Source: Candidatus Nomurabacteria bacterium RIFCSPLOWO2_01_FULL_42_17 (GTDB lineage: Bacteria; Patescibacteriota; Minisyncoccia; Phycocordibacterales; UBA9973). Taken from it: a stretch of DNA of 64,000 nucleotides. The stretch spans positions 233,771 through 297,770 of the forward strand of contig MFVE01000005.1 in NCBI GenBank assembly GCA_001785985.1. The letters are read 5' to 3'. The stretch's first letter is position 1. Every line of letters starts with the position of its first letter. This document shows positions 4,503-38,000 of the stretch, one piece after another. The position numbers were made by a program, and so were the translations under genes. The notes beneath the pieces were generated by a model. The model did no database searches and was not told the DNA's origin. It worked only from the letters and a program-made list of their open reading frames with translations.

Positions 4503-4539
4503 CCCCGCCTGCAACGCTTTGCGTAGCATTACGGGCAGG
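4503..4539. repeat. GC-rich palindromic repeat, family A, copy 1 (CCTGCCCGyAATGCT...GCAGGCGGGG)
   Basis: The minus-strand reading, cctgcccgtaatgctacgcaaagcgttgcaggcgggg, shares both termini with the copies at 13660-13698 and 35053-35092. Confidence 0.7.
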
Positions 4540-4550
4540 TTTTTTTTCAA

Positions 4551-4590
4551 GCCCGACGCTTGCGGTCGGGCCCCCGACTTTACGTCGGGG
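4551..4590 (-). terminator. Tandem GC-rich hairpins downstream of nusA (overlapping its stop codon)
   Basis: gcccgac-gcttgcg-gtcgggc and ccccgac-tttac-gtcgggg lie back to back. On the minus strand they follow the nusA stop. Confidence 0.45.
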
Positions 4591-5740
4591 ACTGTTCGCT
4601 TTTGATCTCTTCGTCGCTTGCTACTGTTTTGCCGTCGCCTTTGATATCTATTCTCCAGCCGGTGAGTTTGGCTGCGAGGCGCACATTTTGTCCGCCTTTG
4701 CCGATAGCGAGCGAGAGCTGATCATCCGCCACTTCGATGGTGGCTTTGTGCGCTTCTTCGTCGATTTCAATGGAAATAACTTTAGCTGGTGAGATTGAAT
4801 TCGCCACAAAAACTTTGGTATCGAGAGACCAAGGTATTATGTCAATCTTCTCACCGCCTAATTCCTGCGTAATGGTGTTCACTCGGGTGCCTTTTTGCCC
4901 GACGCATGAGCCGACAGCATCGATGTGCTCGTCATTTGAATGGACTGCTATTTTGGAACGAGCGCCCGGTTCTCGCGCTATAAATTTTATTTCAACAATT
5001 CCATTTTGGATTTCTGGCGCCTCGATCGCAAAAAGTTTCTCGATGAATTTCGGATGAGTGCGAGAGAGACGCAGGTTGATACCTCTGGGCGTATCCTCTA
5101 CGTTGTAGAGGTATGCTCGTACACGCTGTCCTCTTTGGAAAAATTCTCCGGGAATCTGTTCTTCGGCCGGCAATATGCCAGTGGCGCGGTTGAAGTCAAT
5201 ATACACATTTCCTCTTTCGACTTTTTGCACGATTCCTCCGATTATTTCTCCTTCTTTTGTCCCGTATTCATCAATGATAGATGTGCGTTCCGCTTCGCGA
5301 ATCTTCTGGATTATGACTTGCTTGGCAGTCTGGGCGGCGATGCGTCCGTAATCTTCTTTTGTTTCAAGTGGAAAGACAATTTCATCATTCAGCTCCACCC
5401 CTTTTTTTATTTTTTTTGCGTCTTCCAAAAGGATATGATGCTCTGCATTAAAATGCACGCGCTCATCATCTTTTTCCTTTAATGAATATTCGCCTTCGTT
5501 TTTTTTGTCTGCATCTATGATCGCGATGGTTTCATCTACCACGATTTTTATTTGAAAGAACTCCGTTTTACCTGTTTCCAGGTCAAATTTTGATCGGATG
5601 ATTTGTCCTTTTTTGCCGTAATCTTTTTTGTAGGCGGCCGCCATCGCTTGCTCGATCGCGTCGAGTATTTTTTCTTTGGGAATTTTTCTTTCTTCTTCTA
5701 ATTGCTCTAAAGCTGATTTAAATGTTTTTAGATCTAACAT
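4580..5740 (-). CDS. nusA: Transcription termination/antitermination factor NusA
   Basis: 386 aa. N-terminal NusA domain, S1 domain and two KH domains (GEKIDIIPWS, AIGKGGQNVRLAAKLTGWRIDIK). Confidence 0.9.
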   Translation of the reverse strand: MLDLKTFKSALEQLEEERKIPKEKILDAIEQAMAAAYKKDYGKKGQIIRSKFDLETGKTEFFQIKIVVDETIAIIDADKKNEGEYSLKEKDDERVHFNAEHHILLEDAKKIKKGVELNDEIVFPLETKEDYGRIAAQTAKQVIIQKIREAERTSIIDEYGTKEGEIIGGIVQKVERGNVYIDFNRATGILPAEEQIPGEFFQRGQRVRAYLYNVEDTPRGINLRLSRTHPKFIEKLFAIEAPEIQNGIVEIKFIAREPGARSKIAVHSNDEHIDAVGSCVGQKGTRVNTITQELGGEKIDIIPWSLDTKVFVANSISPAKVISIEIDEEAHKATIEVADDQLSLAIGKGGQNVRLAAKLTGWRIDIKGDGKTVASDEEIKSEQSPT

Positions 5741-5760
5741 AGTGATTTATTAAATTTTAT

Positions 5761-5785
5761 AAAAAAAGCCCTGTTTCGACAGGAC
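5761..5785 (-). promoter_or_regulatory. Hairpin plus U7 tract in the nusA 5' leader (possible NusA-autoregulatory attenuator)
   Basis: On the minus strand, gtcctgtcgaaacagggc is followed by ttttttt about 20 nt before the nusA AUG. Confidence 0.3.
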
Positions 5786-5960
5786 TCATACGGAGTGATA
5801 ATATCACAATTTATCTTTCAATGCAACTTTTTTGGATGGGTGTGGACAGGGTAGTAGATTTTGACGAAGCCCTTTGGGCGCGCTACGCGCATCGCCAAAA
5901 TTCACTACCCTGTGGATAAGTGAGATTGAGGCACTCTATAATAGAGAGTATAATGTGATT

Positions 5961-7178
5961 ATGAAAATTTCTTCTTTAAAAATTTCTTTTGGACTAGCTT
6001 TTTCTTTTTTTTCTTTCTTATTTTTCTTATTCTACTTATTCTCTTTGCCTTTTATCGCGGGAGCTGGAGATGATGACAATATGGCCGGCTACGCTTGGTC
6101 TTCAAACATCGGCTGGATCAGTTTTAATAACACAAGCGGCGGCGGGAGTGTAGATTATGGTGTGAACAAGAACGCTGATGGCACATTAACCGGCTACGCT
6201 TGGTCTTCAAACATCGGCTGGATAAAATTCGGTGGTCTTTCTGGTTTTCCTTCTGGGGCGCAGACATATGCGCAGAATGCAAATGTGAGTGACGGTGAGC
6301 TAAGAGGATGGGCGAGAGCTTGTGCTGGTATGGATGATGAACCGCCTACACCGCCGAACCAAACAACTCCCAATAATACTTGTAGTGGTGATTCACGTAC
6401 TGATGGTTGGGACGGTTGGATCTCTCTTGCTGGCACGGGCTATGGCGTAACTTTGTCCGGTACTAGTTTCGAGGGTTATGCTTGGGGCTCGGATGTTGTA
6501 GGCTGGGTTGATTTTAGTGGTGTTGTTGTCGGCGCCGGCACTGGTACCTGCACTGATAGCACCCAAAATGGAGACGAAACAGGCATTGATGCCGGCGGTC
6601 GTTGCGACGAGGGTACTTGCTCGGATGGCATCCAGAACGGAAATGAAACTGCGGAAGATAGTGGCGGCCGTTGCGGAGCTGGCACCTGCACTGATGGCAG
6701 TCAAAATGGAGATGAAACAGATATTGACACTGGTGGCCGTTGTGACGAGGGCACTTGCTCGGATGGCATCCAGAACGGAAATGAAACTGCGGAAGATAAC
6801 GGCGGCCGTTGCGGAGTTAGCACTTGCTCGGATGATACCAAGAACGGTAATGAAACTGCAGTTGATTATGGCGGTCGTTGTATTGTAGAAGGCGACTGGA
6901 GTGATTGGAGCCCATGCGTGGGCGGTGATCAAACTCGTACTTGTACGAATCCGCCACCTTCCGGCGGTGGAGCTAATTGTAGCGGACCTTCTTCGCGAGT
7001 TTGCGGTTCTTCCGAAGACGGTACTTGTTCCCAAACTCATTACGACTGTTCTTCTCAAGAGACGAGCATCAATCAGATCAGCAGCCCTACCAAGTGGACA
7101 TGGACTTGTCCTGGCTCAGATGGCGGCGCAGATATAATCTGCACCGAAACCAAACGGCCCGGATTTATAGAGGATTAA
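5961..7178 (+). CDS. Secreted Cys-rich repeat protein with thrombospondin-like motifs (pilus-adjacent putative adhesin)
   Basis: The start is moved to the ATG at 5961 (MKISSLKISFGLAF... signal peptide, preceded by tataat). The protein has three GYAWSSNIGWIxF repeats, five to six tandem ~21-aa units of TC(S/T)DGxQNG(N/D)ETxxDxGGRC, and then DWSDWSPCVGGDQTRTCTNPPP..C.G, which resembles a TSP type-1 repeat. Confidence 0.65.
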   Translation: MKISSLKISFGLAFSFFSFLFFLFYLFSLPFIAGAGDDDNMAGYAWSSNIGWISFNNTSGGGSVDYGVNKNADGTLTGYAWSSNIGWIKFGGLSGFPSGAQTYAQNANVSDGELRGWARACAGMDDEPPTPPNQTTPNNTCSGDSRTDGWDGWISLAGTGYGVTLSGTSFEGYAWGSDVVGWVDFSGVVVGAGTGTCTDSTQNGDETGIDAGGRCDEGTCSDGIQNGNETAEDSGGRCGAGTCTDGSQNGDETDIDTGGRCDEGTCSDGIQNGNETAEDNGGRCGVSTCSDDTKNGNETAVDYGGRCIVEGDWSDWSPCVGGDQTRTCTNPPPSGGGANCSGPSSRVCGSSEDGTCSQTHYDCSSQETSINQISSPTKWTWTCPGSDGGADIICTETKRPGFIED

Positions 7179-7194
7179 ATGTTATACTGTAAGG

Positions 7195-8958
7195 ATGCAA
7201 ATCGATGAGGAACAGTTTAAGAAATTTATTTTAGAATCCGGACTTGTTTCTAAAACAGACTTTGATTCCGCCGCCAAGACAGCGGAGGAAAAAAAACAAA
7301 AAATTGGAAATATTTTGCTTTCCGAAGGAAAAATATCTGAAACCGATCTAAAGCGAACGGAAGCTTTCGTTTTAGGGGTGCCATTCATTAGTTTGCTCAA
7401 TGAAAAAATTGATTCGGCTGTGCTTTCTCTGATCCCTGAGCCGATCGCGCGCAATTACAACATAGTTGCCTATACCAAAAGCGAGCATGGACTGGAAGTC
7501 GCGATGCTGGATATTGATGACTTGCCAGTAATTGATTTTATTAAAAAAACTTCCGGGCTGAAAATTTTACCCAGGTTGACCGACACTTCTTCGATCAAAG
7601 CGGTACTTGTGCAATATAGGAAAAGTCTCAAAGCGGAATTTCAAAATATTATCCAGAAGGAATCTTCCACCTCTTTTGGAACTCCCGCAGATGTTGACGC
7701 GGGGAAAGAAGGCGAAAAATCGGAAAAGGCGTTAAAAGATCTGGCCGAAGATTTGCCCGTGATAAAGATTGTTGACTCTTTGATTTTTCACGCAATTTTG
7801 CAAAACGCGTCCGACATTCATATCGAACCTGGAGAACGCGAGCTCACGGTGCGCTACCGGATAGACGGTATCTTGCATGATGCCATGGTGCTCGATAAAA
7901 CCGCCGGTTCAGGGATCACTGCTCGCATCAAAGTGTTGGCGAATCTGAAACTGGATGAAAAAAGACTGCCTCAAGATGGAAGATTCAAGAAAGAACAGGA
8001 TGGAGAAAAGATTTCTTTTCGTGTTTCCACCTTACCCACTTTTTTTGGAGAAAAAACTGTCATGAGAATTTTAAAAGAAAACGCGCACGGATTTTCTCTA
8101 GAAACTCTCGGCTTCCACGGCGAAGCACTGGAGCGCATCCATAATTCTTTAATCCAAAAGACGGGAATGGTGCTAGCCACGGGACCCACAGGCTCCGGCA
8201 AGACGACGACCCTTTACACCATGCTGGATATTTTAAATAAGCCGGAAGTCAATATCTCTACGGTGGAAGATCCGATTGAATATCAAATGCCGCGGGTGAA
8301 TCAGACTCAAGTCAAGCCGGAAATCGGTTTGACTTTTGCGAATGGTCTTCGCTCGCTCCTGCGCCAAGATCCAGACATCATCATGGTGGGCGAGATACGC
8401 GATGGCGAGACGGCGGGACTGGCGGTAAATGCATCGCTGACCGGACACTTGGTTCTCTCCACTATTCATACCAATAGCGCCGCGGGTGCGATCCCGAGAC
8501 TCATCGACATGGGTATCGAACCTTTTTTGATCACCGCGACGGTGAAAGTGATCATCGCGCAGAGATTGGTGCGCAGGCTTACTTCAAATAAGGAAAAATA
8601 TTTTTTGTCGGATGCCGAATTTAAAAATTTAGCTAGAGTTGTGGATCTAGATCGGGTCCTGACATTTCTGAAAACTGAAAACATTGTAGGCGCTAAAGAT
8701 ACTTGGGATAAAATTTCTTTTTATAAACCAGTCAAGAGTACTGAGTTCGAAGATGGCTATTCAAACCGGATCGGCATGCATGAAGTTTTAAAGATTTCGC
8801 CTACTATCAAAGATATGATTATTACCGGAAAGTCTCAAGATGATATAGAGGTACAGGCGAAAAAAGAAGGCATGATGACCATGTTAGAAGACGGAGTCTA
8901 TCAAGCCGTCCTCGGCGTGACTAGCCTAGAAGAAGTATTTCGAGTTGTTTCGGAGTAA
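7195..8958 (+). CDS. pilB: Type IV pilus assembly ATPase PilB (GspE family)
   Basis: T2SSE N-domain, Walker A GPTGSGKTTT, the Asp box and His box (VGEIRD, LTGHLVLSTIHTN). 587 aa. Confidence 0.9.
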   Translation: MQIDEEQFKKFILESGLVSKTDFDSAAKTAEEKKQKIGNILLSEGKISETDLKRTEAFVLGVPFISLLNEKIDSAVLSLIPEPIARNYNIVAYTKSEHGLEVAMLDIDDLPVIDFIKKTSGLKILPRLTDTSSIKAVLVQYRKSLKAEFQNIIQKESSTSFGTPADVDAGKEGEKSEKALKDLAEDLPVIKIVDSLIFHAILQNASDIHIEPGERELTVRYRIDGILHDAMVLDKTAGSGITARIKVLANLKLDEKRLPQDGRFKKEQDGEKISFRVSTLPTFFGEKTVMRILKENAHGFSLETLGFHGEALERIHNSLIQKTGMVLATGPTGSGKTTTLYTMLDILNKPEVNISTVEDPIEYQMPRVNQTQVKPEIGLTFANGLRSLLRQDPDIIMVGEIRDGETAGLAVNASLTGHLVLSTIHTNSAAGAIPRLIDMGIEPFLITATVKVIIAQRLVRRLTSNKEKYFLSDAEFKNLARVVDLDRVLTFLKTENIVGAKDTWDKISFYKPVKSTEFEDGYSNRIGMHEVLKISPTIKDMIITGKSQDDIEVQAKKEGMMTMLEDGVYQAVLGVTSLEEVFRVVSE

Positions 8959-8963
8959 CAAAT

Positions 8964-8993
8964 TTGACAGATCTCCGTCATATTTAGCATAAT
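8964..8993 (+). promoter_or_regulatory. Sigma70-like promoter (TTGACA-N18-CATAAT) driving the inserted gene at 9054
   Basis: ttgaca at 8964-8969 and cataat at about 8988-8993, immediately after the pilB stop. Confidence 0.4.
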
Positions 8994-9024
8994 GTACAGG
9001 TAGGGTGTTCCTCAAAAATAAACA

Positions 9025-9038
9025 GGGCACATGTGCCC
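9025..9038. promoter_or_regulatory. Perfect 14-bp palindrome GGGCACATGTGCCC between promoter and SD (candidate operator)
   Basis: Seen directly. It lies 15 nt upstream of the ATG at 9054, just before an AGGAG Shine-Dalgarno. Confidence 0.35.
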
Positions 9039-9053
9039 AGAAAGGAGTAAGAC

Positions 9054-9530
9054 ATGTCTTACTTTTCGTCGGGTCAGTTGAACCAGCTCGGGGACGCGCT
9101 GGAGAGAGCGGGATGGCTTCCCGAAGATGTGACTAATCTTGGTCAAGCGGGGAAAGCTCGCCTGGCTGAGATCAGACTGTCGCTCCAGAGAAATGACATC
9201 ATCACTCTGATTGAGACGAAGCAAACAGAGCCTTGGCTCCATGACGATCAAAAAGCGGATTTGATTGTTCAGGGCTATAAGATCTTGGCGTACCTCGATC
9301 AAAATGGCTTGCTTGATTCCTGCGCCAATCTCGGCGAACTGCGGTCCATCCAGTTCAAAGGGATAGAATTTTTCCAGCGATATTTCGCCGGCAAAGTTAT
9401 CTTTGGCTGGGGAGGGGTTGATGGTGAGAGCGTGCCATGCTTGTTCGTGTTTCAAGGGGAGGTGGTGCAGTCTCGGCGCCAACTCAACAATCGTTGGCAT
9501 ATAGATGACCCTGGTTTACGTCGCATTTGA
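9054..9530 (+). CDS. Hypothetical protein (158 aa) on a GC-rich insert inside the pilus operon
   Basis: Strong SD (aaaggag, N6, ATG). It has its own promoter and terminator and about 50% GC against a 35-40% background. No family recognised. The antisense ORF 9012..9500 is rejected. Confidence 0.55.
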   Translation: MSYFSSGQLNQLGDALERAGWLPEDVTNLGQAGKARLAEIRLSLQRNDIITLIETKQTEPWLHDDQKADLIVQGYKILAYLDQNGLLDSCANLGELRSIQFKGIEFFQRYFAGKVIFGWGGVDGESVPCLFVFQGEVVQSRRQLNNRWHIDDPGLRRI

Positions 9531-9561
9531 TTGCCACGGCGATAACGTCCATCCACACACA

Positions 9562-9607
9562 GGTGAGCTGTCGGATTATTCCGCGCTCACCCGTTTTTTA
9601 TTTTTAT
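9562..9607 (+). terminator. Rho-independent terminator after the 9054 gene
   Basis: ggtgagc-tgtcggattattccgc-gctcacc followed by ccgttttttatttttat. Confidence 0.6.
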
Positions 9608-9628
9608 ATGTTAAAATATAACCTACCG

Positions 9629-10846
9629 ATGCTTTTTTCTTACACAGCAAAATCAAAAGCGGGTGGAATCGTAGAAGGCGTGCAAAGCTCGGCGGATCGC
9701 CTCGCGCTCGCCCGGGAATTGCGCAGTCGCGGGGACATACCCTTGTCGATCAGAGAAAAAGATAAAAATTTTTTAGCTAAAATATCGACTCTTACAAATA
9801 TTTTTTCCAAAGTCAGTGTCAATGAGCAGATTATTTTCACCAAGAATCTAAGCGGGATGGTCAAGGCGGGGCTGTCCCTCTACCGAGCTTTATCTGTTTT
9901 AAAAAAGCAGACTAAAAATCCTAAAATGAGTACTATTCTAGCGTCTCTGACAGACGAGATAAATTCTGGAGGGACGCTTTCCTCTGGGCTGGCAAAATTT
10001 CCTGATGTTTTTTCAACTCTTTTTGTCTCAATGGCTAAAGCCGGTGAAGAGTCCGGCAATCTCGCCGGGGCGCTCTCGGATATTGGATTGAATTTAGAGA
10101 AGTCGCATGCTTTGACGAAAAAAATAAAAAGCGCGCTCATTTATCCGGGAGTTATTCTCTCCGCGATGGTGGTGATTGCCGTGCTGATGTTTGCTTTTGT
10201 GGTGCCGACTCTGGCCGGCACCTTCAAAGAGCTCGGGGTTACGCTACCCACTTCTACTCGCGTCCTCATTTTCATTGGTAATTTTTTCTCTCATCATTTA
10301 ATATTCACTTTTATTATTATCATTGGCATGGCTTTGGGCTTGTATCTGATTTTTCGCTCTAAATTTATGGCTAGATATATTGATTATATTATTGTTAGGC
10401 TTCCAATCATCGGGAATTTAGCCAAAGAATTAAATACCGCTCGCACTGCTCGCACCATGTCTTCTCTCTTGTCTTCTGGAGTCCCCATCACTCGTGCAGT
10501 CGAGATCACGGGAGACGTGGTTCAGAATATTTATTATAAAAAAGTTTTGAATGAAGCTAAAACTGGCATAGAAAAAGGCGCCCCATTTTCTAGAGCCTTT
10601 GAAATGAATAATAAACTTTATCCGGTTATGATGTCGGAAATGGTTCAAGTCGGGGAAGAAACCGGAAAATTGTCAGATATGCTGTTAGAAATTTCTTTGT
10701 TCTATGAAGGTGAAATTGAAAATAAAACTAAAAATCTCTCCACGATTATTGAGCCTCTCTTGATGATCGTGATCGGCGCGGGAGTTGGCTTTTTCGCCAT
10801 CTCGATGATTTCGCCACTTTATTCGATTTTAGGCAGTATAAAATAA
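9629..10846 (+). CDS. pilC: Type IV pilus platform protein PilC (GspF family)
   Basis: Two T2SSF repeats and three to four TM segments. The tracked ORF starts at a TTG at 9527. The start chosen is the ATG giving MLFSYTAKSKAGGIVEG (typical PilC N-terminus). An alternative ATG lies at 9608. Confidence 0.85.
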   Translation: MLFSYTAKSKAGGIVEGVQSSADRLALARELRSRGDIPLSIREKDKNFLAKISTLTNIFSKVSVNEQIIFTKNLSGMVKAGLSLYRALSVLKKQTKNPKMSTILASLTDEINSGGTLSSGLAKFPDVFSTLFVSMAKAGEESGNLAGALSDIGLNLEKSHALTKKIKSALIYPGVILSAMVVIAVLMFAFVVPTLAGTFKELGVTLPTSTRVLIFIGNFFSHHLIFTFIIIIGMALGLYLIFRSKFMARYIDYIIVRLPIIGNLAKELNTARTARTMSSLLSSGVPITRAVEITGDVVQNIYYKKVLNEAKTGIEKGAPFSRAFEMNNKLYPVMMSEMVQVGEETGKLSDMLLEISLFYEGEIENKTKNLSTIIEPLLMIVIGAGVGFFAISMISPLYSILGSIK

Positions 10847-11844: not shown

Positions 11845-12347
11845 TCAAAGTTACAAATTACAAAAATTTAAACGACGGTTATACAATATTTGAACTTCTG
11901 TTTTATATTTCTTTTTTCGCTCTGCTTTCTTTGTTAGTGATCAATGCGATGGTTACGATGACCAAATCATTTAAGGAAACTGCAATTCAAGCAGAGTTAG
12001 CGCAGAGCGGATCGATTATGGAAAAAATGTCTAGGGAAATCAGGCAAGCCTATGATATAAGTTCGATTAATTCTACTGACTTGAATTTGAATACTACGGA
12101 CAGCGCGGGCGCAGAAAAAACAGTGGAATTTTTACTTTCTGGCTCCAATGTACAATTTTTGGAAAATAGTGTTTTAACTGGCAATTTAAATGCACCGAAT
12201 ATCGTAGTCACGGGTCTCTCATTTACGCAAATAATTACTGCCAAAGGCAAAGCAGTCAAGATAGTTCTTTCTGTTCGCTCCAGTAATGATAGTCTCGCTC
12301 GCGTCCAAGATTTTTATGATACAGTCGTGTTGCGAGGAAACTATTAA
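11841..12347 (+). CDS. Prepilin-like protein
   Basis: NDG|YTIFELLFYISFFALLSLLVINA has the prepilin motif. The ORF overlaps the previous gene by 4 nt. Confidence 0.6.
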   Translation: MIKVTNYKNLNDGYTIFELLFYISFFALLSLLVINAMVTMTKSFKETAIQAELAQSGSIMEKMSREIRQAYDISSINSTDLNLNTTDSAGAEKTVEFLLSGSNVQFLENSVLTGNLNAPNIVVTGLSFTQIITAKGKAVKIVLSVRSSNDSLARVQDFYDTVVLRGNY

Positions 12348-12384
12348 TTATAAAGTTCGTAAAGTAGAAAGTTATAAAGTAAAA

Positions 12385-13641
12385 ATGCAGAAAAAAATAA
12401 AAATAAAAAAAAATAGTGGCGCGGCGATGCTGATATCTGTTATCTTTTTTCTTTTTATTTCCTTGGCAATAATTGCCGGGCTGGTTTCGCCCACCGTTCG
12501 TGAATTCAAGAATGCCAGTGTTAATTTAAATTCAAAGAAATCATATTTCTTGGCTGAATCGGGAGTGGAAGATGCATATTTTCGTTTGAAAACCGCTAAA
12601 ACAATTGGATCCACTGAAACTATTACTTTAGGAGGCAATTCGACTACGACCACGATCACAGATTCGGCATATAATGAGAAGACCATTTCTTCTTTGGGCG
12701 ATGTAAATTCTTTTCAAAGAAAAAGTAAAATTATATTAAATGTCGGGGACGGGGTCTCTTTCAGTTATGGTATTCAAGCTGGGGCTGGGGGCTTTGTTCT
12801 CGGAAATGCAACAATCTTTGGCAATGTTTATTCAAACGGAACTATTATAGGAACTAACGGCGCCACTATCACTGGATCTGCTTTTTCCGCTGGAGCTTCT
12901 GGTCTGATTGATAATATCAATATAGGACTGGCAGGCACAGGGGATGCTAGAGCTCACACTGTTACTGGTTCCACTATTGCTGGCAATCTTTATTGTCAAA
13001 CTGGAACCGGCAACAATAAATCCTGTAATACTTCAGAGCTTGATCCGGATCCAGTCGACATGCCTATTACGGAAGCTATGTTTGATGAATGGAAAGCCGA
13101 TGCTGAATTAGGGGGAACCATTGTTGGTAATTTAACTATCTCGTCGCCGACAACCTTAGGACCTAAAAAGATTACTGGTAATTTAGCCATCAATAGCGAT
13201 CTAACCATTACCGGCACTATTTATGTGGTTGGAAACATAACCACCAACAACGGCGCGGAAGTTTCTTTAAGTAGTTCTTATGAATCTACCGGTGGTATTA
13301 TTGTCACTGATGGACAGGTGACTCTCTCTAATAATGTTATGTTTTTTGGTTCCGGCAGTGAAGGGTCTTATGTGCTACTGACGACCACCAGCGCTTGTCC
13401 CTCTGGATGTTCTGGCGTAAATGCGATGGAGATTTTAAATAACGTCGGAGCAATACTTGTAAATGCTCAAAATGGTACGGTGCATCTAAACAACAATGTC
13501 GAATTAAGTGAAGTGGTGGGGTACAAAATTATCGTGGATAATAGCGCGGAGGTGACTTACCTATCTGGTTTAGCAAACACTCTTTTTACTTCGGGTCCTT
13601 CCGGCGGATGGGATATTACAAGCTGGGGGGAAGCTCAATAG
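12385..13641 (+). CDS. Large pilus-associated protein (N-terminal TM helix, Gly/Thr/Asn-rich beta-helix-like repeats); possible tip adhesin or minor pilin
   Basis: The start is moved to the ATG at 12385 (MQKKIKIKKNSGAAMLISVIFFLFISLAIIAGLV). Repetitive G/N/T-rich sequence follows. It is the last gene of the pilin cluster. Confidence 0.5.
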   Translation: MQKKIKIKKNSGAAMLISVIFFLFISLAIIAGLVSPTVREFKNASVNLNSKKSYFLAESGVEDAYFRLKTAKTIGSTETITLGGNSTTTTITDSAYNEKTISSLGDVNSFQRKSKIILNVGDGVSFSYGIQAGAGGFVLGNATIFGNVYSNGTIIGTNGATITGSAFSAGASGLIDNINIGLAGTGDARAHTVTGSTIAGNLYCQTGTGNNKSCNTSELDPDPVDMPITEAMFDEWKADAELGGTIVGNLTISSPTTLGPKKITGNLAINSDLTITGTIYVVGNITTNNGAEVSLSSSYESTGGIIVTDGQVTLSNNVMFFGSGSEGSYVLLTTTSACPSGCSGVNAMEILNNVGAILVNAQNGTVHLNNNVELSEVVGYKIIVDNSAEVTYLSGLANTLFTSGPSGGWDITSWGEAQ

Positions 13642-13659
13642 ATTAGCTTGTAGCTTGTA

Positions 13660-13698
13660 CCTGCCCGCAATGCTGAAGCATAGCTTTTGCAGGCGGGG
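13660..13698. repeat. GC-rich palindromic repeat, family A, copy 2
   Basis: cctgcccgcaatgctgaagcatagcttttgcaggcgggg. It is nearly identical to the copy at 35053-35092. Confidence 0.7.
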
Positions 13699-13721
13699 TT
13701 TGTAGGTGTTAGAATGAAATA

Positions 13722-14504: not shown

Positions 14505-14514
14505 AGTTTTTGCA

Positions 14515-14554
14515 TGGTCTGGCCGGGGTGGGGGGCCCCGGGGAACCGAGGACC
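14515..14554. repeat. GC-rich 40-nt palindromic repeat, family B, copy 1 (intergenic tpiA-pgk)
   Basis: tggtctggccggggtggggggccccggggaaccgaggacc. It is identical to the copy at 16584-16623. Confidence 0.8.
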
Positions 14555-14591
14555 TGAAAAAATTTTACTTTACTAAACTTTTTGTAAAAAC

Positions 14592-15728
14592 ATGCGAAGC
14601 ATTGAACAAATAAAAAATATAAAAGGAAAAACTGTACTTTTGCGGGTGGATTTTAATGTACCTATGAAGCCTGCCCGCCGAAGAGGAGGGGACGGCGTGG
14701 TGGAGGATGATTTTCGAATTAAAAAAGCTCTGCCGACGATAGAATTTTTACAGAAAAAAAATGCAAAAATAATTTTGATTACGCATTTAGGGACTGGCGG
14801 AGAGACTTTGGCCGGAGTGGCAAAAGTTTTAAATAAATTTATCAAAGTTACTTTTGTCCCCGAAATTGTTGGCCCAAAAGTTTCGCAGGTGGTTCGAGAC
14901 ATGAAAGAAGGCGAGGTAATCTTGTTGGAAAATTTGAGGAATGATAAGGGAGAAAAAGAATGTAACGAAATTTTTGCGATGAGTTTGGCAAAATTAGCCG
15001 ATATTTATGTAAACGAGGCTTTCCCTGTTGATCACAGAGAGGATGCTTCTATTGTTCTCTTGCCAAAGCTATTGCCTGCATACGCAGGTATCCAGTTATC
15101 CGAGGAAGTGAAAAACTTATCTCGCGCTTTCAAAAATTCCAAGCACCCCTTCTTATTTATTTTAGGTGGAGCTAAATTTTCCACTAAAATGCCTTTAATC
15201 GAGAAGTATTTGAAATTATCAGATTATGTTTTCGTCGGCGGAGCGCTGGCGAATGATTTTTTGAAAGCGCGTGGATATGAGATAGGCAAATCCCTTTTTG
15301 ATAACACTGATTATGATTTTAAAAAAGTATTAAAGAATCCAAAACTTATTTTACCAGTTGATGTTGTTGTCAAAAAAGGAGATAAATCAATTAATAAAAA
15401 GATAAACGAGATAGAAAAAGATGAAAACATTTTAGACATTGGAGAAGAGTCTGTGAAAAATCTTAGTCTACTTATTAAAAAGTCTAAATTTATATTATGG
15501 AATGGACCACTGGGTAAATATGAAGACGGCGGAGCAGAGTCTACGAAAGAAGTATTAAAATTGGTTGCAGCTTCAAAAGCGGAAAGTATTATCGGCGGAG
15601 GAGATACAGTCGCTCTAATCACCCAGATGAAAATGGAAAAAGATTTTTCTTTTATATCAACTGGTGGTGGAGCGACGCTAGATTTCCTCGCAGACGGCAC
15701 TCTGCCCGGCATCAAAGCGCTTGAGTGA
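14592..15728 (+). CDS. pgk: Phosphoglycerate kinase
   Basis: VLLRVDFNVP, a hinge and the C-terminal nucleotide-binding domain (GGGDT, GGGA). 378 aa. Confidence 0.9.
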   Translation: MRSIEQIKNIKGKTVLLRVDFNVPMKPARRRGGDGVVEDDFRIKKALPTIEFLQKKNAKIILITHLGTGGETLAGVAKVLNKFIKVTFVPEIVGPKVSQVVRDMKEGEVILLENLRNDKGEKECNEIFAMSLAKLADIYVNEAFPVDHREDASIVLLPKLLPAYAGIQLSEEVKNLSRAFKNSKHPFLFILGGAKFSTKMPLIEKYLKLSDYVFVGGALANDFLKARGYEIGKSLFDNTDYDFKKVLKNPKLILPVDVVVKKGDKSINKKINEIEKDENILDIGEESVKNLSLLIKKSKFILWNGPLGKYEDGGAESTKEVLKLVAASKAESIIGGGDTVALITQMKMEKDFSFISTGGGATLDFLADGTLPGIKALE

Positions 15729-16101: not shown

Positions 16102-17856
16102 ATGTCTGAATTACTTGATATTTTGCTTGAAAAAAGGGGGATTACACCCGAACAGAAAGATATTTTTTTGAATCCGGATTACAAGCGAGATTTACACGAC
16201 CCTTTTTTGATGCGAGATATGGAAAAGGCCTGCGTACGACTCTATGAAGCAATAGATAATAAAGAAAAAATCTTAATTTATGCGGATTATGATTGCGATG
16301 GGATACCCGGAGCGGTGATTTTGAATGACCTTTTTAAATTGATAGGGTATAAAAATTATGAAGTTTATATTCCGCAAAGAAATTCCGAAGGCTATGGACT
16401 CAATCTGGAAGCAATAAAAAAATTTGCTGAATCAGGCGTGAAACTTCTGATCACGATTGACCTCGGCATTACAGCCGTAGCGGAAGTGGCTCAAGCAGAA
16501 GTGGATGGCATTGATGTGATAATTACAGACCATCACTTGCCTCGCCTAGCTCAAAAAGATTCGCAAGCAGAGGATTTTCGAGCTGGTCTGGCCGGGGTGG
16601 GGGGCCCCGGGGAACCGAGGACCCGAGAAAATCCTCTGGTTGCTGAATCTTTCATTCTTCCTCGTGCTTGTGCAATCTTGAATCCGAAGGTAGACAGTTA
16701 TCCCGAAAAGATGTTGTGCGGGGCGGGGGTTGTTTTCAAATTTGTACAGGGATTTATAAAAAAATATGGCGAATATTTTAAGATTCGAGAGGGCGCAGAA
16801 AAATGGATGTTAGATATGGCTGGGCTCGCGACGCTTTCTGATATGGTTCCACTAACAGGAGAGAATAGAGCTTTGGCGTATTTTGGAATGAAGGTGTTAA
16901 AGAAATCTCCTCGTCCGGGCTTGCAAAAACTTTTAGCCAAGATGAATATTGAGCAGAAATATCTCTCGCCGGACGATATAGGCTTTATGGTTACGCCACG
17001 GCTGAACGCCGCGTCTAGGATGGATGATCCGATGCGGGCGTTTGAACTTTTGGCGACAGAAGACGAAGCGCAAGGTGGGATACTCGCGAATCATTTGTCT
17101 AAAATAAATGATGAAAGGAAAACCATTGTGACAAGTATCATGCGAGAAGTTCATAAGAAATTTGAAACGGAAACGACGTCTGAGGTGATAGTGATAGGCA
17201 ATCCGAAATGGCGAGTCGGCATCCTCGGATTAGTAGCGGGAAAAATTTGTGATCAATATGAAAAGCCCGTCTTTGTTTGGGGTAAAGATGAGAATGATTG
17301 CATCAAGGGGTCTTGTCGGAGCGATGGCTCGGTCTCGGTGGTAGAACTCATGACTGAAACTGCGGGATCTTTTATAGATTTTGGCGGTCATGAGCTGGCT
17401 GGGGGTTTTACGGTTGAAACTGAGAAAATTCATTTCTTACAAGAGCAATTGTCTTTGAATTTTAAAAAAGTGAAGCGAGATAAACTGGATGATATCGCAA
17501 ATTATGATATTAAGTCCGGCTTAGATATTGTCAATATGAAAAGCTGGCGTGAAATAGAGAAGCTTGAGCCTTTCGGACTGGGTAATTCCAAACCCATCTT
17601 CCTTTTTGAGGGAGCAAAAATAGAAAAAATAAAAAAATTCGGCAAAAATGGCTCTGGCGAGCATTTGGAAATTATTTTTTCTGATTCATCTAATTCTCAC
17701 GGTAAAAAAGCTAAAGCTATTTCTTTTTTCTCTAATATTGATTCTTTTAAAAAGAAATTGGAAGAAGGACTTGGTGTAAATTTGCTCGCCACTTTTGATT
17801 TATCTAGATTTAGAGGTAGGGAAGAGCTAAGATTGCGGATAGAAGATATTTTTTAA
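16102..17856 (+). CDS. recJ: Single-stranded-DNA-specific exonuclease RecJ (DHH/DHHA1)
   Basis: DYDCDGI and ITDHH motifs and a DHHA1 C-terminal region. It carries the in-frame 40-nt GC-rich repeat, translated as AGLAGVGGPGEPRT. Confidence 0.85.
   Translation: MSELLDILLEKRGITPEQKDIFLNPDYKRDLHDPFLMRDMEKACVRLYEAIDNKEKILIYADYDCDGIPGAVILNDLFKLIGYKNYEVYIPQRNSEGYGLNLEAIKKFAESGVKLLITIDLGITAVAEVAQAEVDGIDVIITDHHLPRLAQKDSQAEDFRAGLAGVGGPGEPRTRENPLVAESFILPRACAILNPKVDSYPEKMLCGAGVVFKFVQGFIKKYGEYFKIREGAEKWMLDMAGLATLSDMVPLTGENRALAYFGMKVLKKSPRPGLQKLLAKMNIEQKYLSPDDIGFMVTPRLNAASRMDDPMRAFELLATEDEAQGGILANHLSKINDERKTIVTSIMREVHKKFETETTSEVIVIGNPKWRVGILGLVAGKICDQYEKPVFVWGKDENDCIKGSCRSDGSVSVVELMTETAGSFIDFGGHELAGGFTVETEKIHFLQEQLSLNFKKVKRDKLDDIANYDIKSGLDIVNMKSWREIEKLEPFGLGNSKPIFLFEGAKIEKIKKFGKNGSGEHLEIIFSDSSNSHGKKAKAISFFSNIDSFKKKLEEGLGVNLLATFDLSRFRGREELRLRIEDIF
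16584..16623. repeat. GC-rich 40-nt palindromic repeat, family B, copy 2 (in-frame inside recJ)
   Basis: An exact copy of 14515-14554, positioned by counting codons from the recJ start. Confidence 0.8.
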
Positions 17857-26678: not shown

Positions 26679-26725
26679 CTTTATTTTTGCTTGAATATTT
26701 TGGCTAAAAATGTATAATCAGGCGA

Positions 26726-29530: not shown

Positions 29531-29538
29531 ATAATTTT

Positions 29539-29955: not shown

Positions 29956-30025
29956 AAATTTATTATCATAATAACTAGTAAGAATGGTTCTTTCAGACGC
30001 ACTAGCGAATTTTTGAAATAAAATT

Positions 30026-32728: not shown

Positions 32729-32951
32729 ATTTTAAGCCCGCTGTTTTATTCAGCGGGCTTCGGATGGAATTAAGAGATGTATCACAAGCAATCTTTGACT
32801 TATCCTCTCTATGTGAATTATTTTTTTCTGTGTTTTGCCATTCTCGAGGTGAGTTGCAAGTTTGGTACCGAACTTTTCTTCCGACCGGTTAGTAGATTTA
32901 TTTCTTATTTTTATCCACTCTGCTTTATATGCTTTCGAGCATAATCTTTAT

Positions 32952-33299
32952 TTACAAGGTCGTTATTTTATCCCGCGCCAGTTCCTCTTTTTTTATAAAA
33001 GAAGGTTCCGGGAAGGGTGCATTTTTCGACCGAGCTAGTTTGAGGTGTATTGTAGACAGTAATTTTTTACATCTTTCCACATAAGGACGTCGCACACCTA
33101 GCGTGGCAAGATTAGAATCTAATGCAACAAGAATGTCAGGGGATGATTGCACGTTTGTTCTTTCCACCATTTCTCGTATTGCAAATAAACCGTTCTTTAC
33201 TGCATTTTCTCGAGCTCTATCTTGGAACCACTGAAAAGATAAAATAAGAGTAAGTATGATGTTGATTACTTCAGAGAATCCAAAATTAATTTCAGTCAT
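32952..33299 (-). CDS. Hypothetical protein (115 aa, N-terminal TM helix)
   Basis: ORF only. No family recognised. Confidence 0.35.
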   Translation of the reverse strand: MTEINFGFSEVINIILTLILSFQWFQDRARENAVKNGLFAIREMVERTNVQSSPDILVALDSNLATLGVRRPYVERCKKLLSTIHLKLARSKNAPFPEPSFIKKEELARDKITTL

Positions 33300-33479
33300 A
33301 TTATTTTATTTTTTACAGCTTTTTACTGAGCTCGACTATTCTCTGCTGTACTATGTGCATATTATTAGTAGGCGTATATGGATGTAAAGTGGATAACTGG
33401 CATTTTCAGCATTAAAACACAAAATAAAAATTATAAAATACCAATACAGCCTACGAAATAGGTATGATAGGATAATAGT

Positions 33480-33701
33480 GTGAAATACATCCACTGTAAA
33501 GTTGTTGCTTCGGCTAGAAGGGAATCGTTTAAGGTAAAATCCGAGGATCATTTTGAAATTTCAGTCAGAGAAAAAGCTGAAAGAAATATGGCGAATAATC
33601 GCGTCATTTCTCTCGTGGCAGAGCATTTCAAAGTTCCCGTAAATAAGGTCAGGATAATAAACGGGCACAAGCATCCGAGCAAGCTTCTGGTGGTGGACTA
33701 A
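33480..33701 (+). CDS. DUF167 / YggU-family small protein
   Basis: ISVREKAERNMANNRVISLVAEHFKVPVNKVRIINGHKHPSKLLVV matches the UPF0235/YggU pattern (G.AN..L...L...l.v....v.i..G..s..K.v). Confidence 0.55.
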   Translation: MKYIHCKVVASARRESFKVKSEDHFEISVREKAERNMANNRVISLVAEHFKVPVNKVRIINGHKHPSKLLVVD

Positions 33702-33742
33702 CTAAGATTACCTTTAAGTTCTATTTGTGCTAAAATAAATAT

Positions 33743-34117
33743 ATGAAATACATTGATGGATTTGTGATACCTCTAAAGAAAAAAGATGTTGCGGCTTATC
33801 GCAAGATGGCGCAGTGGGGAGCGAAGACTTGGAAAAAATACGGCGCCTTGGAATATTTTGAGTGCATCGGCGATGATCTGAAAGTAAAGAAAGGCATGGG
33901 GCAGGGTTTTGTCAAACTCGCCAAATTGAAAAAAGGGGAGACAGTTGCTTTCTCCTGGATCGTCTACAAGTCTCGCGCGCACCGAGATGCCGTCAACAAA
34001 AAAGTAATGAAAGAAATGGATGCTCCTCTAAACAAAGAAAAGTATAAAAATATGCCGATGCCTTTCGATATGAAGCGCTTTGCTTATGCAGGATTCAAAG
34101 CAATCGTGGAAGCTTGA
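33743..34117 (+). CDS. DUF1428-family protein
   Basis: MKYIDGFVIPLKKKDVAAYRKMAQ...GALEYFECIGDD resembles DUF1428 (YbaA-like) proteins. Confidence 0.45.
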   Translation: MKYIDGFVIPLKKKDVAAYRKMAQWGAKTWKKYGALEYFECIGDDLKVKKGMGQGFVKLAKLKKGETVAFSWIVYKSRAHRDAVNKKVMKEMDAPLNKEKYKNMPMPFDMKRFAYAGFKAIVEA

Positions 34118-34283
34118 TGGATCAAAAGTACTTGATTTTTAGAAGCAAGAGGAGTATAAAATACTCGAAGCTGTAGTCGAGTAAAGACGTCTTAGAGCCT
34201 TAGAGCCATCGGATGATGGATTCTAAGTACACACCTTAGCTGTCTTTTCTCAAAGATAGTGCTGTTCGAAAACCCGAAAACCT

Positions 34284-34598
34284 ATGAAAAAAGTGCAAGT
34301 GTTTAACTCACGCGAGATGATCCATGCCCGTCGTTTAAAACGCAACGCGGTGTATCGGAAGAAACACAATGGTTCAGCTCGACTGGACCAGACGTCCCTA
34401 GCACTCCAGCCGGAGCTGACACCACCAAGTGCAGTTCGGCTGGATCGGAAACCCGAACCAGCAGAGCAACCACCATCGCACTCGCTACAAGCATGGCGAA
34501 AGTGGACCGATGAGGAGCTGGAGAAAGCGGCCGCCACAATCAATGGCCAAAACGGGGGTAAGAAGGACAAAAAGGCGCGCTGGCTTAATTACAGGTAA
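34284..34598 (+). CDS. Hypothetical basic protein (104 aa) on a GC-rich segment
   Basis: An ORF followed directly by a strong terminator. About 58% GC. Its reality is uncertain because GC-rich DNA yields ORFs in all frames. Confidence 0.4.
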   Translation: MKKVQVFNSREMIHARRLKRNAVYRKKHNGSARLDQTSLALQPELTPPSAVRLDRKPEPAEQPPSHSLQAWRKWTDEELEKAAATINGQNGGKKDKKARWLNYR

Positions 34599-34622
34599 AT
34601 TGCCCGGATCGGGCCAATCAGA

Positions 34623-34661
34623 CAGCCCGGAACCCATACGGTTCCGGGCTGTTATTTATTT
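34623..34661 (+). terminator. Rho-independent terminator (cagcccggaac-ccatacg-gttccgggctg followed by ttatttatt)
   Basis: An 11-bp perfect GC-rich stem with a T-rich tail, 25 nt after the stop at 34598. Confidence 0.7.
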
Positions 34662-34664
34662 ACT

Positions 34665-34695
34665 AAATAAAAAAGGAATGGACGAGTGCCATTCC
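34665..34695 (-). terminator. Rho-independent terminator for the minus-strand zinc-ribbon gene (ggaatgg-cactcgt-ccattcc plus U-tract)
   Basis: The hairpin at 34675-34695 is followed on the minus strand by TTTTTTATTT. It converges with the plus-strand terminator. Confidence 0.6.
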
Positions 34696-34723
34696 TGCCC
34701 ATCCGTAGATAGGACTTTGTTTG

Positions 34724-34912
34724 TCATTCTCGGTGGTGGCATACCATGGTATGATGTCCCACCTCCTCCCGAGCGACCCCATTTTTTTTAGGGTCCTCCA
34801 GCTGCCAACCGTCCAAGCACTCATATGAACAAAAGTACTTGTCGTGTCGCCTGTCCCACAGGGCGTGTTCTTCCTCCAACCTTTGCTTGCAGTATGAGCA
34901 TTTTATTTCCAT
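34724..34912 (-). CDS. Small TRASH/zf-FCS-type zinc-ribbon protein (62 aa from the ATG; the tracked ORF starts at a GTG at 34930)
   Basis: C-x2-C-x19-C-x3-C with an FCS motif (CSYCKQ...KYFCSYEC). A perfect SD AAGGAG lies 8 nt upstream of the ATG (MEIKCSYC). Confidence 0.55.
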   Translation of the reverse strand: MEIKCSYCKQRLEEEHALWDRRHDKYFCSYECLDGWQLEDPKKNGVAREEVGHHTMVCHHRE

Positions 34913-35037
34913 AAGAAAGGTCTCCTTCACATATAATTTTATGCCTTTAAATAAAAAAGTAAAGGAAATTGGTGCATAACTCTATGAAGATGTAGGCATA
35001 GGTCTTTTATGGCCTTTTATGTTAAAATCAACTAATA

Positions 35038-38000
35038 ATGGCTGAAAAAGAACCTGCCCGCAATGCTTTCAGCATAGCTGATGCAGGCGGGGAAAAAAGT
35101 AATAAGAGTGATGTAGCGCTTCCAGCCTCCGCTGGTAGCTCTGGCGTGGCGAAGCGCGAGGAAGCAATTTTGCAGTTTTGGAAGAAGAATAAAATTTTCC
35201 AGAAATCTTTAGATAAAAATTCACCAAAGGGGAATTATGTTTTTTATGATGGTCCGCCTTTCGCTACCGGCCTGATACATTATGGACACATTTTAGGGAG
35301 TACTGCCAAAGATGCCGTGGCGCGTTATCAGACGATGAGGGGATATCATGTGCCTAGAAAGTGGGGCTGGGATTGTCATGGACTTCCGATTGAAAACATT
35401 GTTGAAAAAGATTTGAATATTGCCGGACATAAGGAAATAGAAAAGATTGGTATAGATAAATTTGTCGAACATGCGCGGAGTCTTGTCTTGCAATACGATA
35501 AGGAATGGGAAAGCGGGGTAGAGCGCATCGGACGATGGGTGGACTTTCGGGGCGGATACAAAACGATGGACAATACTTTCATCGAATCCGTCTGGTGGGC
35601 GTTTAGCGAGCTAAATAAAAAAGGACTTATCTATGAAGGGGTGAGAGTTCTGGCCTATTGCGCAAGATGCGAGACGCCGATCGCGAATTCCGAAATTGCG
35701 ATGGATAACAGCTATAAAGATATTGCGGATCTTTCTATTTATGTAAAGTTTGAACTGGAAAATGAATCGGGAACATATCTGCTTGCTTGGACCACCACTC
35801 CGTGGACATTGCCGGGGAACACTGCGATTGCGGTAAATAAAAATATTACATATGTAAAAGTGAGAATAGGAAATGATGTGTTGATACTTGCAAAAGACAC
35901 CCTCCAGAATGTATTAAAAGAAAAAGAATATTCTGTGGTAGAGGAAATCAAAGGGAGTGAATTAATAGGCAAAAAATATAAACCGGTATTTCCATACTAT
36001 CGGAATGTTGATCTGCCAAATAAAGAAAACATTTGGAAGGTCTGGTCGGCGGATTTCGTGACGACCGAGAAAGGTACGGGGATCGCGCACGAAGCGCCGG
36101 CTTTCGGCGAGGACGATATGAATCTGGCAAAGCAGTATAGTATTCCCTGGATTATTCACGTGGATGAGACGGGCAGATTTAAGCCCGAAGTTACTGATTT
36201 TTCTGGTTTAAAAGTCAAACCAAAAGATACGCCGGAAGACAAAGATGCGCATATGCGGAGCGATATTGAAATCATTAAATATCTGCAAAAAACCGGAGCA
36301 TATTTTGATAAAGAAAAAATAATCCATTCATATCCGCATTGCATGCGTTGCGATACGCCGATTATTTATTACGCGCTGCCATCCTGGTTCATAAATATTC
36401 AGAAAGTTAAAAAAAATATTTTGAAAAGAGCTGAGAGTATGAATTGGGTTCCTGCACATCTAAAAGAGGGCAGATTTAAAAATATAGTCGAAAATGCGCC
36501 TGATTGGAATGTGTCCAGAAATCGTTACTGGGCTTCGCCTTTACCCGTCTGGAAATGTGAAAAATGCACCGAACAAGTTTTTATTAGTTCGCTCGCAGAT
36601 CTGAAAGTCAAAACAAAAAAGTCCGGTAATAAATATTTTGTAATGCGGCACGGGGAGGCGGAAAATAACGCAAAAAATATTTATTCTTCCAACCAGAAAA
36701 TAAACCACCTGACAGAAAAAGGTCGCACGCAAGTCCTGCAGACGATAGGGCACCTAAAAAGTAAAAAAATCACTAAAATATATTGTTCACCTTTTTTGCG
36801 TACCCGCGAGACGGCGCAAATGGTAGCCGAGAAAATTGGTTTTCCGCTCGAGAAAATTATTTACGATGACAGAATTCGCGAATTAGAATTTGGTGATTTT
36901 TCAGAGCGTCCGGTTTCGGATTACTGGGATTATATGAAAGACAAAATATGGGAATTTGATAAAAAAGTTCCCGGAGGGGAAAGTTTTCAGGATGGCAAGA
37001 ATCGTATTGGAAATTTTCTGTACGATATCGATCAGAAAAATAAAAATGAGTGCATCCTGATCATCTCTCATGGCATTGCAGTCGAGATGGTGCCAGCGGT
37101 GATCGAAGCAGCTGATAAAAAGCGTTCAGCAGAAGTTTTTCATTTGCATATGAAAAATAAAACTGCAGAATTGCATCGTGAACATGAATTTTCTCCTCTT
37201 CCACATAATGCAAATTATGAACTAGATTTTCATAGACCCTATATAGATGAGATAAGACTCGTTTGCAGTTGTAAATCCGAAATGAAGAGAGTGCCCGAAG
37301 TTTTAGATTCTTGGTTGGAGTCTGGTTCCATGCCTTTTGCGCAGAATCACTATCCATTTGAAAATCGAGATTGGCAGAAGAATAATTTTCCGGCTGGTTT
37401 CGTGGCGGAATATATCGCGCAGACCAGAACATGGTTTTATTATACTCATGTGCTCTCGACAATTCTCTTTGATCATGCACCATTTGATAATGTGGTCACC
37501 ACTGGCACGCTGCTCTCGGAAGATGGTCAGAAAATCTCAAAATCTAAAAAGAATTATCCAGACCCATGGATATTTATAGATAAGTATGGAGTGGACGCGC
37601 TTCGTATGTATCTGATGACGAGTCCCCTAATGAAAGGCGAAGATGCAAACTTCTCCGAAAAATTAGTACAGGAAATTTCAAGTAAAATTATCGGAAGACT
37701 TGGTAATGTGGTTTCTTTCTATGAACTCTACCCCGCGCCAGAGCAAGCCAGGTACGAGGCAGGTAGTGATGTTAAAAAGTCTGGAGATATCTTGGATAAA
37801 TGGATTCTGGCGCGATTGAATCAACTGGTGAGTGAAGTTACAAACGGCATGGAAGCCTACGATATGAATGAAGCCTCTCGCCCCATCGAGGGCTTCATTG
37901 AGGATCTTTCTGTGTGGTATCTGCGTCGTTCCAGAGAGCGAATAAAAGATGGGGACAAGGAAGCGAAACAGACTTTATATTTTCTACTAAAAACCGTGGC

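Follow-up and report, generated by a model that had tools for sequence, protein, structure and literature searches.

Three copies of a small GC-rich hairpin in the genome of Candidatus Nomurabacteria bacterium RIFCSPLOWO2_01_FULL_42_17 belong to a family of dispersed, structure-constrained elements that insert exactly, are filtered by reading frame and orientation where they lie within genes, and decay to short remnants. The copies lie near ppa, tpiA and ileS in a 64-kb stretch of contig MFVE01000005.1 (64,000 nucleotides, nt; hereafter the window, whose positions are used throughout). We consider it probable that they are tiny non-autonomous selfish palindromes, which resemble repetitive extragenic palindromic (REP) sequences in general and, inside genes, the Rickettsia palindromic elements (RPEs). 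The copies in the window and their likely relatives are:

4504-4539, minus strand: copy 1, 36 nt, CCTGCCCGTAATGCTACGCAAAGCGTTGCAGGCGGG; intergenic; covariance-model match of 61.4 bits.
13660-13697, plus strand: copy 2, 38 nt (a length not divisible by three), CCTGCCCGCAATGCTGAAGCATAGCTTTTGCAGGCGGG; intergenic; covariance-model match of 46.6 bits.
35053-35091, plus strand: copy 3, 39 nt, codons 6-18 of ileS (PARNAFSIADAGG); covariance-model match.
14670-14690, plus strand: remnant in pgk, 21 nt, CCTGCCCGCCGAAGAGGAGGG; both ends kept, apex lost; weak covariance-model match.
50077-50107, minus strand: possible diverged antisense relative in tatD, CTTGCCCGT...GCGGGG; 9 bits, E = 5, uncertain.

The 15-mer CCTGCCCGYAATGCT occurs exactly three times in the window, at 4525-4539 (minus strand), 13660-13674 (plus) and 35053-35067 (plus), and shuffled sequence gives a mean of 1.6 matches to it at up to three mismatches. 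GCAGGCGGGG is the exact 3′ end of all three copies. These matches agree with the original prediction, which had been made from the letters of the window and described three copies with common termini of about 15 nt and with variable, self-complementary centres; the centres of the three copies do differ and stay paired. The three sites were placed correctly, but their limits are refined to those given above, and the ileS copy covers codons 6-18 rather than 5-18. A search with the family covariance model, with its filters off, likewise found three full copies only, at 47-61 bits. That count matches the earlier inventory, from which the pgk remnant and the possible tatD copy were missing. A window match at 54521-54587 was rejected as a chance match within ftsK. 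The element strand is predicted to fold at -20 to -22 kcal/mol in the window copies, with folding z-scores of -4.5 for copy 1, -3.1 for copy 3 and merely -0.8 for copy 2. The copy upstream of tpiA is base-for-base identical in the independent Logan assembly of SRR3989342.

The family comprises 83 distinct element sequences, mainly in classes of 36 and 39 nt. Their base is fixed, CCTGCCCGCAATGC...GCAGGCGGG, and their apex varies but is compensatorily paired. The consensus is CCTG-CCCGC-AA-TGC-T-[NCGC-ATA-GCGN]-T-GCA-G-GCGGG. The base is asymmetric and consists of a 5′ CCTG tail, a CCCGC/GCGGG stem, an AA/G internal loop and a TGC/GCA stem. In the apical stem 95.8% of cells are paired and the covariation score was reached in 0 of 500 shuffles, while pairing falls to 31-50% when the partner columns are slid. 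The apical pair 16-26 occurs as UA (10), AU (6), GU (3) and GC (2), and at the basal pair 12-30 T-A is replaced by C-G in variants found by the covariance model. Longer apices have unrelated sequences, yet they fold at -9 to -12 kcal/mol. Stem mismatches of the G-T and A-C types are about equal in number (17 vs. 16). They therefore give no hint that a constraint acts on one strand as RNA only, and the idea of an RNA-specific G-U signature was rejected. A tRNA/tmRNA search gave no match.

A pattern scan for the shared ends, covering a single genome for each species, recovered at least 120 loci; a separate scan of IMG/VR gave 13 viral loci, where the element sits in ordinary intergenic repeats. 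Several genomes contribute more than one locus. Among the matches listed are Patescibacteria (Nomura-, Falkow-, Roizman-, Magasanik-, Levy-, Berkel- and Staskawiczbacteria, and others), contigs of high GC content (54-60%) that come from independent projects and carry the labels Verrucomicrobia, Kiritimatiellia and Lentisphaerae, and a 5.08-Mb 'Deltaproteobacteria' chromosome. No match to the element was found in GenBank phages or PLSDB plasmids. Seven exact variants are common to low-GC and high-GC loci, and one exact variant is common to the deltaproteobacterial chromosome and ten viral loci. The labels 'Gammaproteobacteria', 'Bdellovibrionales' and 'Woesearchaeota' on low-GC metagenome-assembled genomes (MAGs) from co-assemblies look unreliable, and a locus labelled 'Saccharibacteria' is syntenic with Nomurabacteria loci. 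Because of these doubtful labels, we rested any claim across phyla on the high-GC contigs of the Planctomycetes-Verrucomicrobia-Chlamydiae (PVC) group and on the 5-Mb chromosome. The wide recovery of copies with the shared termini, together with the apical covariation, bears out the earlier proposal of a dispersed repeat selected for structure, with compensatory changes in its centre; the span over several phyla and the frequent siting inside genes had not been noticed. A multi-variant synthetic peptide query against a protein database gave 399 candidates and 11 weak matches, which has little bearing on prevalence.

Copies can also lie close together. Locus L008 (contig CAYJQS010000014.1) has four to five copies, all sense, in 8 kb of an operon for ribosomal proteins and IF-1. 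The insertions there include IF-1 and the N-terminus of ribosomal protein S9, and the S9 site is also filled in the genome of L088. Lentisphaerae GWF2_57_35 has a nested composite in which one copy lies within an oppositely oriented copy (L015, 7609-7644, and L097, 5729-5764; these two loci come from the same genome and share part of their flanks). Tandem copies occur at L101.

Comparison with related genes gives the limits of the insertions. RecG at L010 reads KS[PARNASSIAGAGG]GIYLANPEFEK, and at the same place its orthologue at L040 has KSGTYLANPEFEK (KSGTY) and carries its own copy of the element at another site. ValRS at L106 reads TLGW[12 aa]PDET, and pgk of the window encodes exactly seven extra residues (PARRRGG) relative to the Thermotoga PGK 1vpe. 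The junctions in RecG, ValRS and pgk are those of exact 39-, 36- or 21-nt insertions without a duplicated flank, and no target-site duplication was found at any of the filled and empty junctions compared. We did not find a flank consensus in either GC class that could serve as a target motif; biases are limited to a purine at -1 and scarce A at +1. Apex-deleted remnants like that of pgk occur also in L054, L018 and L020. The product of tatD (49834-50748) has an insert of ~32 residues, at residues ~69-107, relative to solved TatD proteins, and this insert is GC-rich and hairpin-forming and has a weak antisense match to the element.

Roughly 40% of copies fall within long open reading frames (ORFs), and their hosts include IleRS, ValRS, IF-1, GyrA, RecG, LepA, ribonucleotide reductase (RNR) and Mur ligase. 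The host ORFs that were tested (10 of 10) proved to be genuine genes, and in each of them a Pfam domain contains the element. These domains include the catalytic domains of ValRS and IleRS, the GTPase domain of LepA, GyrA, the ribonucleotide reductase barrel, Mur ligase, the HD domain of CCA/poly(A) polymerase and a tyrosine integrase. In RecG the element directly follows the wedge domain, and both IF-1 and S9 carry copies in the ribosomal-operon locus.

The intragenic copies are strongly restricted in frame, length and orientation. Around 40 are read as CCT GCC CGC AAT GCN (PARNAxHSxAGG) vs. 11 as LPAMLRIAMQAG, and the third sense frame, which has a TAG stop inside, is never the frame used. 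Every copy in a long sense ORF has a length that is a multiple of three (41 of 41; 33, 36, 39, 42 or 45 nt), whereas 25 of the 127 copies overall do not. Simple gene calls in the low-GC loci give 41 sense vs. 4 antisense intragenic copies; all three antisense frames of the element are open, yet antisense intragenic copies are rare. Intergenic copies between co-directional genes of the same low-GC loci number 17 sense vs. 8 antisense. Splicing-like removal is ruled out, since intragenic copies obey the constraints on frame and length, and judging from these constraints the copies are probably translated as a loop of ~12-13 residues. The flanks of intragenic copies are A-rich Lys/Glu codons (51% A vs. 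32% background; intergenic flanks have 40% A). This has the appearance of copies surviving in hydrophilic loops, not of a preference for certain targets.

Two of the genes beside the window copies differ in how the element affects their start:

3942-4478, minus strand: ppa in its proper annotation, starting MNLWHD; the TTG extension to 4550 through copy 1 is spurious.
35038-38658, plus strand: ileS, host of copy 3; most likely starts at the ATG at 35038.

Copy 1 is located 25 nt upstream of the true ppa ATG (4478), in the spacer that separates this ATG from the nusA stop (4580). Solved pyrophosphatases in the PDB align from residue 24-25 of the TTG-initiated ppa ORF, residue 1 of the 178-aa Thermococcus pyrophosphatase aligns with M25, and the Pfam domain begins at residue 43 of the long ORF. 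The alignments therefore place the start at the ATG at 4478 and leave copy 1 upstream and non-coding. That the element is what extends the ppa ORF by 24 codons from a TTG had been foreseen correctly. Copy 2 is likewise intergenic; ORF 12286-13641 stops 18 nt ahead of it, and the ATG of tpiA (13722) follows it by 24 nt.

For ileS, the original prediction had also placed the true start downstream of the element, and this is probably wrong. It was right that the peptide encoded by the element is peculiar, as none of 120 orthologues has it at the N-terminus. However, the residues beside the insert, MAEKE and EKSNKSDVAL, resemble the orthologue N-termini MEEKDTNKKSEAALREE and MNDKEAIVKSDVALREE, the ATG at 35038 is the sole in-frame start upstream of the conserved KSDVAL, and the 39-nt insert preserves the reading frame. 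These features point to an in-frame insertion after codon 5, and copy 3 most likely lies inside the true ileS coding sequence; in other genomes the same element is deep inside conserved domains, where its translation is unavoidable. The predicted IleRS junction peptide spanning the insert is NAFSIADAGGEK. There is a slight possibility that ileS starts instead at a GTG at 35146, as some orthologues have short N-termini.

The ileS region has other peculiarities. A second in-frame GC-rich insert of 33 nt (35122-35154, PASAGSSGVAK) sits between KSDVAL and REEAILQFW and is absent from orthologues. It has an inverted repeat, GCGCTTC/GAAGCGC, at its edges (~-25 kcal/mol) and represents a family unrelated to the element studied here. 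Residues 534-693 of IleRS form a complete histidine-phosphatase domain (His_Phos_1, phosphoglycerate-mutase-like; Pfam E = 7.7e-30), inserted midway in the synthetase. Upstream of ileS, the GC-rich stretch 34250-34930 has no ORFs other than implausible ones that overlap, and its Rfam matches do not rise above noise. It could represent a gene in decay or an RNA that is not yet described.

The element lands in intergenic and in coding DNA, without target duplication or a strong target motif, and we propose that selection then filters the insertions, such that within genes only sense copies with lengths in multiples of three would survive. The surviving intragenic copies would be found mostly in Lys/Glu-rich loops and be read in the PARNA frame, or less often in the other open sense frame. 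Elsewhere, copies would drift, gain indels or lose the apex and end as short remnants. In the window, copies 1 and 2 would be non-coding insertions upstream of ppa and tpiA, and copy 3 would be translated in ileS. Movement is likely to be via a folded single strand that is recognized by an enzyme acting in trans. The most obvious mover would be a Y1/HUH transposase of the IS200 type or of the REP-associated tyrosine transposase (RAYT) type, for which one gene of the window makes a weak case:

49118-49816, plus strand: RAYT-like Y1 (HUH) transposase gene, IS200-like family; candidate mover in trans, unproven.

The protein matches Pfam Y1_Tnp at 35.6 bits (cut-off 23). Its best NCBIfam match is REP_Tyr_transpos at 41.5 bits, under the cut-off of 80 for that family, and homologues are labelled 'RayT' by JGI. 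By tblastn and profile HMM, Y1 homologues were found 0.6-2 kb from the element in 4 of the 120 loci, all of them from the Candidate Phyla Radiation (CPR), against a rough expectation of ~1 locus that assumes a single-copy gene in a ~1 Mb genome. A perfect AT-rich palindrome, AAATACATAGGTTAAACCTATGTATTT (49096-49125), overlaps the start codon of the RAYT-like gene and could control its translation.

The element shares features with several known systems. Like REP sequences, it is a GC-rich imperfect palindrome of 20-40 nt that bears a conserved 4-nt tail on one of its ends and is mismatched internally, it is present in many dispersed copies, some of them intragenic and read through in-frame, and a RAYT-like gene is found in the window. 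Intragenic REPs have been documented, as has the misannotation of start codons caused by N-terminal REPs (Di Nocera et al. 2013, PMC3733652). PARNA is absent from the intragenic REP peptides in the supplement of that paper, and the peptides of our element differ from all of those given there. The element also differs from REPs in that a REPtron arrangement was not found, in its far higher intragenic fraction (~40%) and in having identical copies across phyla.

In Rickettsia, selfish DNA in protein-coding genes reportedly takes the form of RPEs, which are in-frame selfish palindromes. Our element resembles them as a palindromic repeat that is in-frame in housekeeping genes, including those for aminoacyl-tRNA synthetases, and is tolerated as a surface peptide. 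Unlike RPE-1, which has 100-150 bp and is restricted to Rickettsia, it measures 36-39 nt and is spread over Patescibacteria, PVC bacteria and phage contigs. The Y1 HUH transposases of IS200/IS605 elements recognize subterminal hairpins and carry out single-strand transposition. Likenesses to these elements are the hairpin and its short conserved tail, insertion that leaves the target site unduplicated, some strand bias, and a gene of the same enzyme superfamily in the window; the element differs in being a single hairpin rather than having distinct left and right ends, and it has no transposase inside or linked to it. MITEs (transposable elements that are miniature and have inverted repeats) of the DDE type differ in two respects, as our element has no target-site duplication and its ends are offset and are not true inverted repeats. 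Very small mobile repeated elements, 21-27 nt long and dispersed, are said to occur in cyanobacteria. Our element is similar to them as a very short mobile hairpin that can be nested and for which no transposase is known, and differs from them in sequence and host taxa. A full-text literature search with exact DNA and peptide strings gave no relevant paper, and keyword searches combining CPR with RAYT/REP or with in-frame palindromes gave general literature on REPs, RPEs and MITEs only. What is unusual in the element is that identical copies occur across phyla and that a very high fraction of copies is intragenic, in essential genes of streamlined genomes.

Several observations weigh against a selfish, REP-like origin. 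No mobilizing enzyme is tied to the element. Neither the RAYT-like gene of the window nor any of the four homologues near the element is flanked by copies, and the 555 kb around 80 RAYT-like homologues contain one element copy. The homologues near the element are only 33-52% identical to each other, though the elements are identical, and we found no Y1 homologues in the PVC or viral loci. The 5′ tail is CCTG in almost every copy, and neither end has GTAG, CTAC or CGTC, although a GTAG or CGTC tag is the defining mark of REPs. Its copies are mostly singletons, with inverted or nested pairs in few PVC loci only, and insertions lack the specific 4-5-nt target of IS200/IS605 elements beside them. 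The invariance of the base is partly by construction, as the search pattern demanded conserved ends; copies with an altered base were recovered by the covariance model. An exact look-up of TpiA gave one other contig, which was identical. Since no filled/empty polymorphism between strains was seen, present-day mobility is deduced from the comparison between species. Finally, identical 36-mers in AT-rich CPR and GC-rich PVC genomes are a poor fit to the lineage-specific evolution of REPs and are hard to explain in that way.

The identical copies can be taken further. The same 36-nt hairpin might now be spreading between Patescibacteria, Verrucomicrobiota/Kiritimatiellia/Lentisphaeria, the deltaproteobacterial chromosome and phages, outside the rules of REP/RAYT and IS200/IS605 systems and by a mechanism with neither target duplication nor target preference. 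We regard this reading as tentative and rather doubtful. Spread across phyla would possibly be via an enzyme or template carried by phages, or via the exchange of DNA between an episymbiotic CPR cell and its host. If true, the element would be a tracer of exchange between CPR, hosts and phages and a natural mutagen that inserts 12-residue loops into essential proteins.

An all-against-all comparison of 1,763 ORFs from the 120 loci found no protein family enriched beside the element, the most frequent being in no more than eight loci. A phage-borne or templated source of the element is possible. A small hairpin nucleic acid made repeatedly by a phage, retroelement or plasmid could be pasted into nicks or replication gaps in a templated or ligation-type insertion. 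This would account for identical sequences in distant phyla and for the lack of both duplication and target motif. The seven exact variants shared by low- and high-GC loci, the one shared by the deltaproteobacterial chromosome and ten viral loci, the lack of a linked transposase and the presence of copies on viral contigs fit it as well. However, no source locus or reverse transcriptase candidate was found, the copies on viral contigs are in ordinary intergenic repeats, and the several apex variants per genome (three in the window) would call for several templates. We know of no precedent for such templated hairpin insertion and consider it unlikely.

A regulatory role was also considered. The element would then be a cis-regulatory hairpin selected at ppa, tpiA and ileS, as a 5′-untranslated-region stabilizer, an attenuator or terminator, a protein-binding site or the donor of a -35 box. 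The window copies are all co-oriented with the adjacent gene and at gene 5′ ends, and their hairpins are stable. In copies 1 and 2, a -10-like hexamer (TATACT or TAGAAT) follows the TTGCAG of the 3′ arm at a distance of exactly 17 nt and is itself 6-7 nt before the ATG, which is the geometry of a leaderless promoter. At tpiA a promoter scan called TTTGCA-18-TAGAAT together with a TG upstream, but it did not call the ppa site, and -10-like hexamers at that offset are not in excess across 88 low-GC copies. The donation of a promoter at ppa and tpiA is thus a local possibility only. Searches of Rfam 15 gave no match at gathering scores in the window and only noise around copies 1 and 3 at permissive E-values. 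The ~40% of copies in coding sequence are in unrelated domains at non-homologous positions, intergenic copies occur in either orientation, and the G-T and A-C mismatches are symmetric. A selected regulatory function is accordingly improbable as an explanation of the three copies.

It is very improbable that PARNAxHSxAGG is a functional peptide motif selected in many proteins. The strong bias for one frame (~40 vs. 11) and for the sense orientation would be expected of such a module, but there are intergenic, second-frame and antisense copies, variation in the apex preserves base pairing and not amino acids, the host proteins and insertion positions are unrelated, and orthologues function without the insertion. 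An artefact of assembly, binning or library construction has next to no credibility: the matches are all in MAGs or metagenomes, with none in GenBank phages or PLSDB plasmids, and some NCBI taxon labels are doubtful, but the element comes from many independent projects and assemblers and from an identical independent Logan assembly, and an artefact would not yield frame-preserving lengths, compensatory apex changes or decayed remnants.

In CPR genomes the element is a trap into which annotation can fall repeatedly. False N-terminal extensions such as that of ppa arise from it, and so do N-termini or internal loops that are odd yet genuine; ileS and pgk, and possibly tatD, are examples of these. 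The signature of the fixed base, read as PARNA..AGG, lets annotators and structure modellers recognize and mask it. The selfish reading, which we prefer, extends the phenomenon of selfish DNA in coding genes, as in the RPEs of Rickettsia and in intragenic REPs, to the streamlined genomes of Patescibacteria. That AT-rich CPR genomes, GC-rich PVC genomes and phage contigs have identical copies suggests a common mobilizing agent or recent horizontal spread.

The surroundings of the window copies contain other features. The sign of the GC skew switches at ~4000-6000, where the genes diverge, with the minus strand to the left and the plus strand to the right, and this region may be a replication origin. 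The top strand of all three window copies is on the leading strand as suggested by the skew, which is also the coding strand. A pair of neighbouring GC-rich hairpins, GCCCGACGCTTGCGGTCGGGC and CCCCGACTTTACGTCGGGG, is found at 4551-4591 between the nusA stop and copy 1; they may be the hairpin family that the earlier description of this DNA had listed as its first. Another GC-rich repeat, GGTCTGGCCGGGGTGGGGGGCCCCGGGGAACCGAGGACC, has two copies. One is in the tpiA-pgk spacer (~14518-14556), and the other (~16585-16623) is inside ORF 16102-17856, within a longer palindrome with a folding energy of -47.6 kcal/mol.

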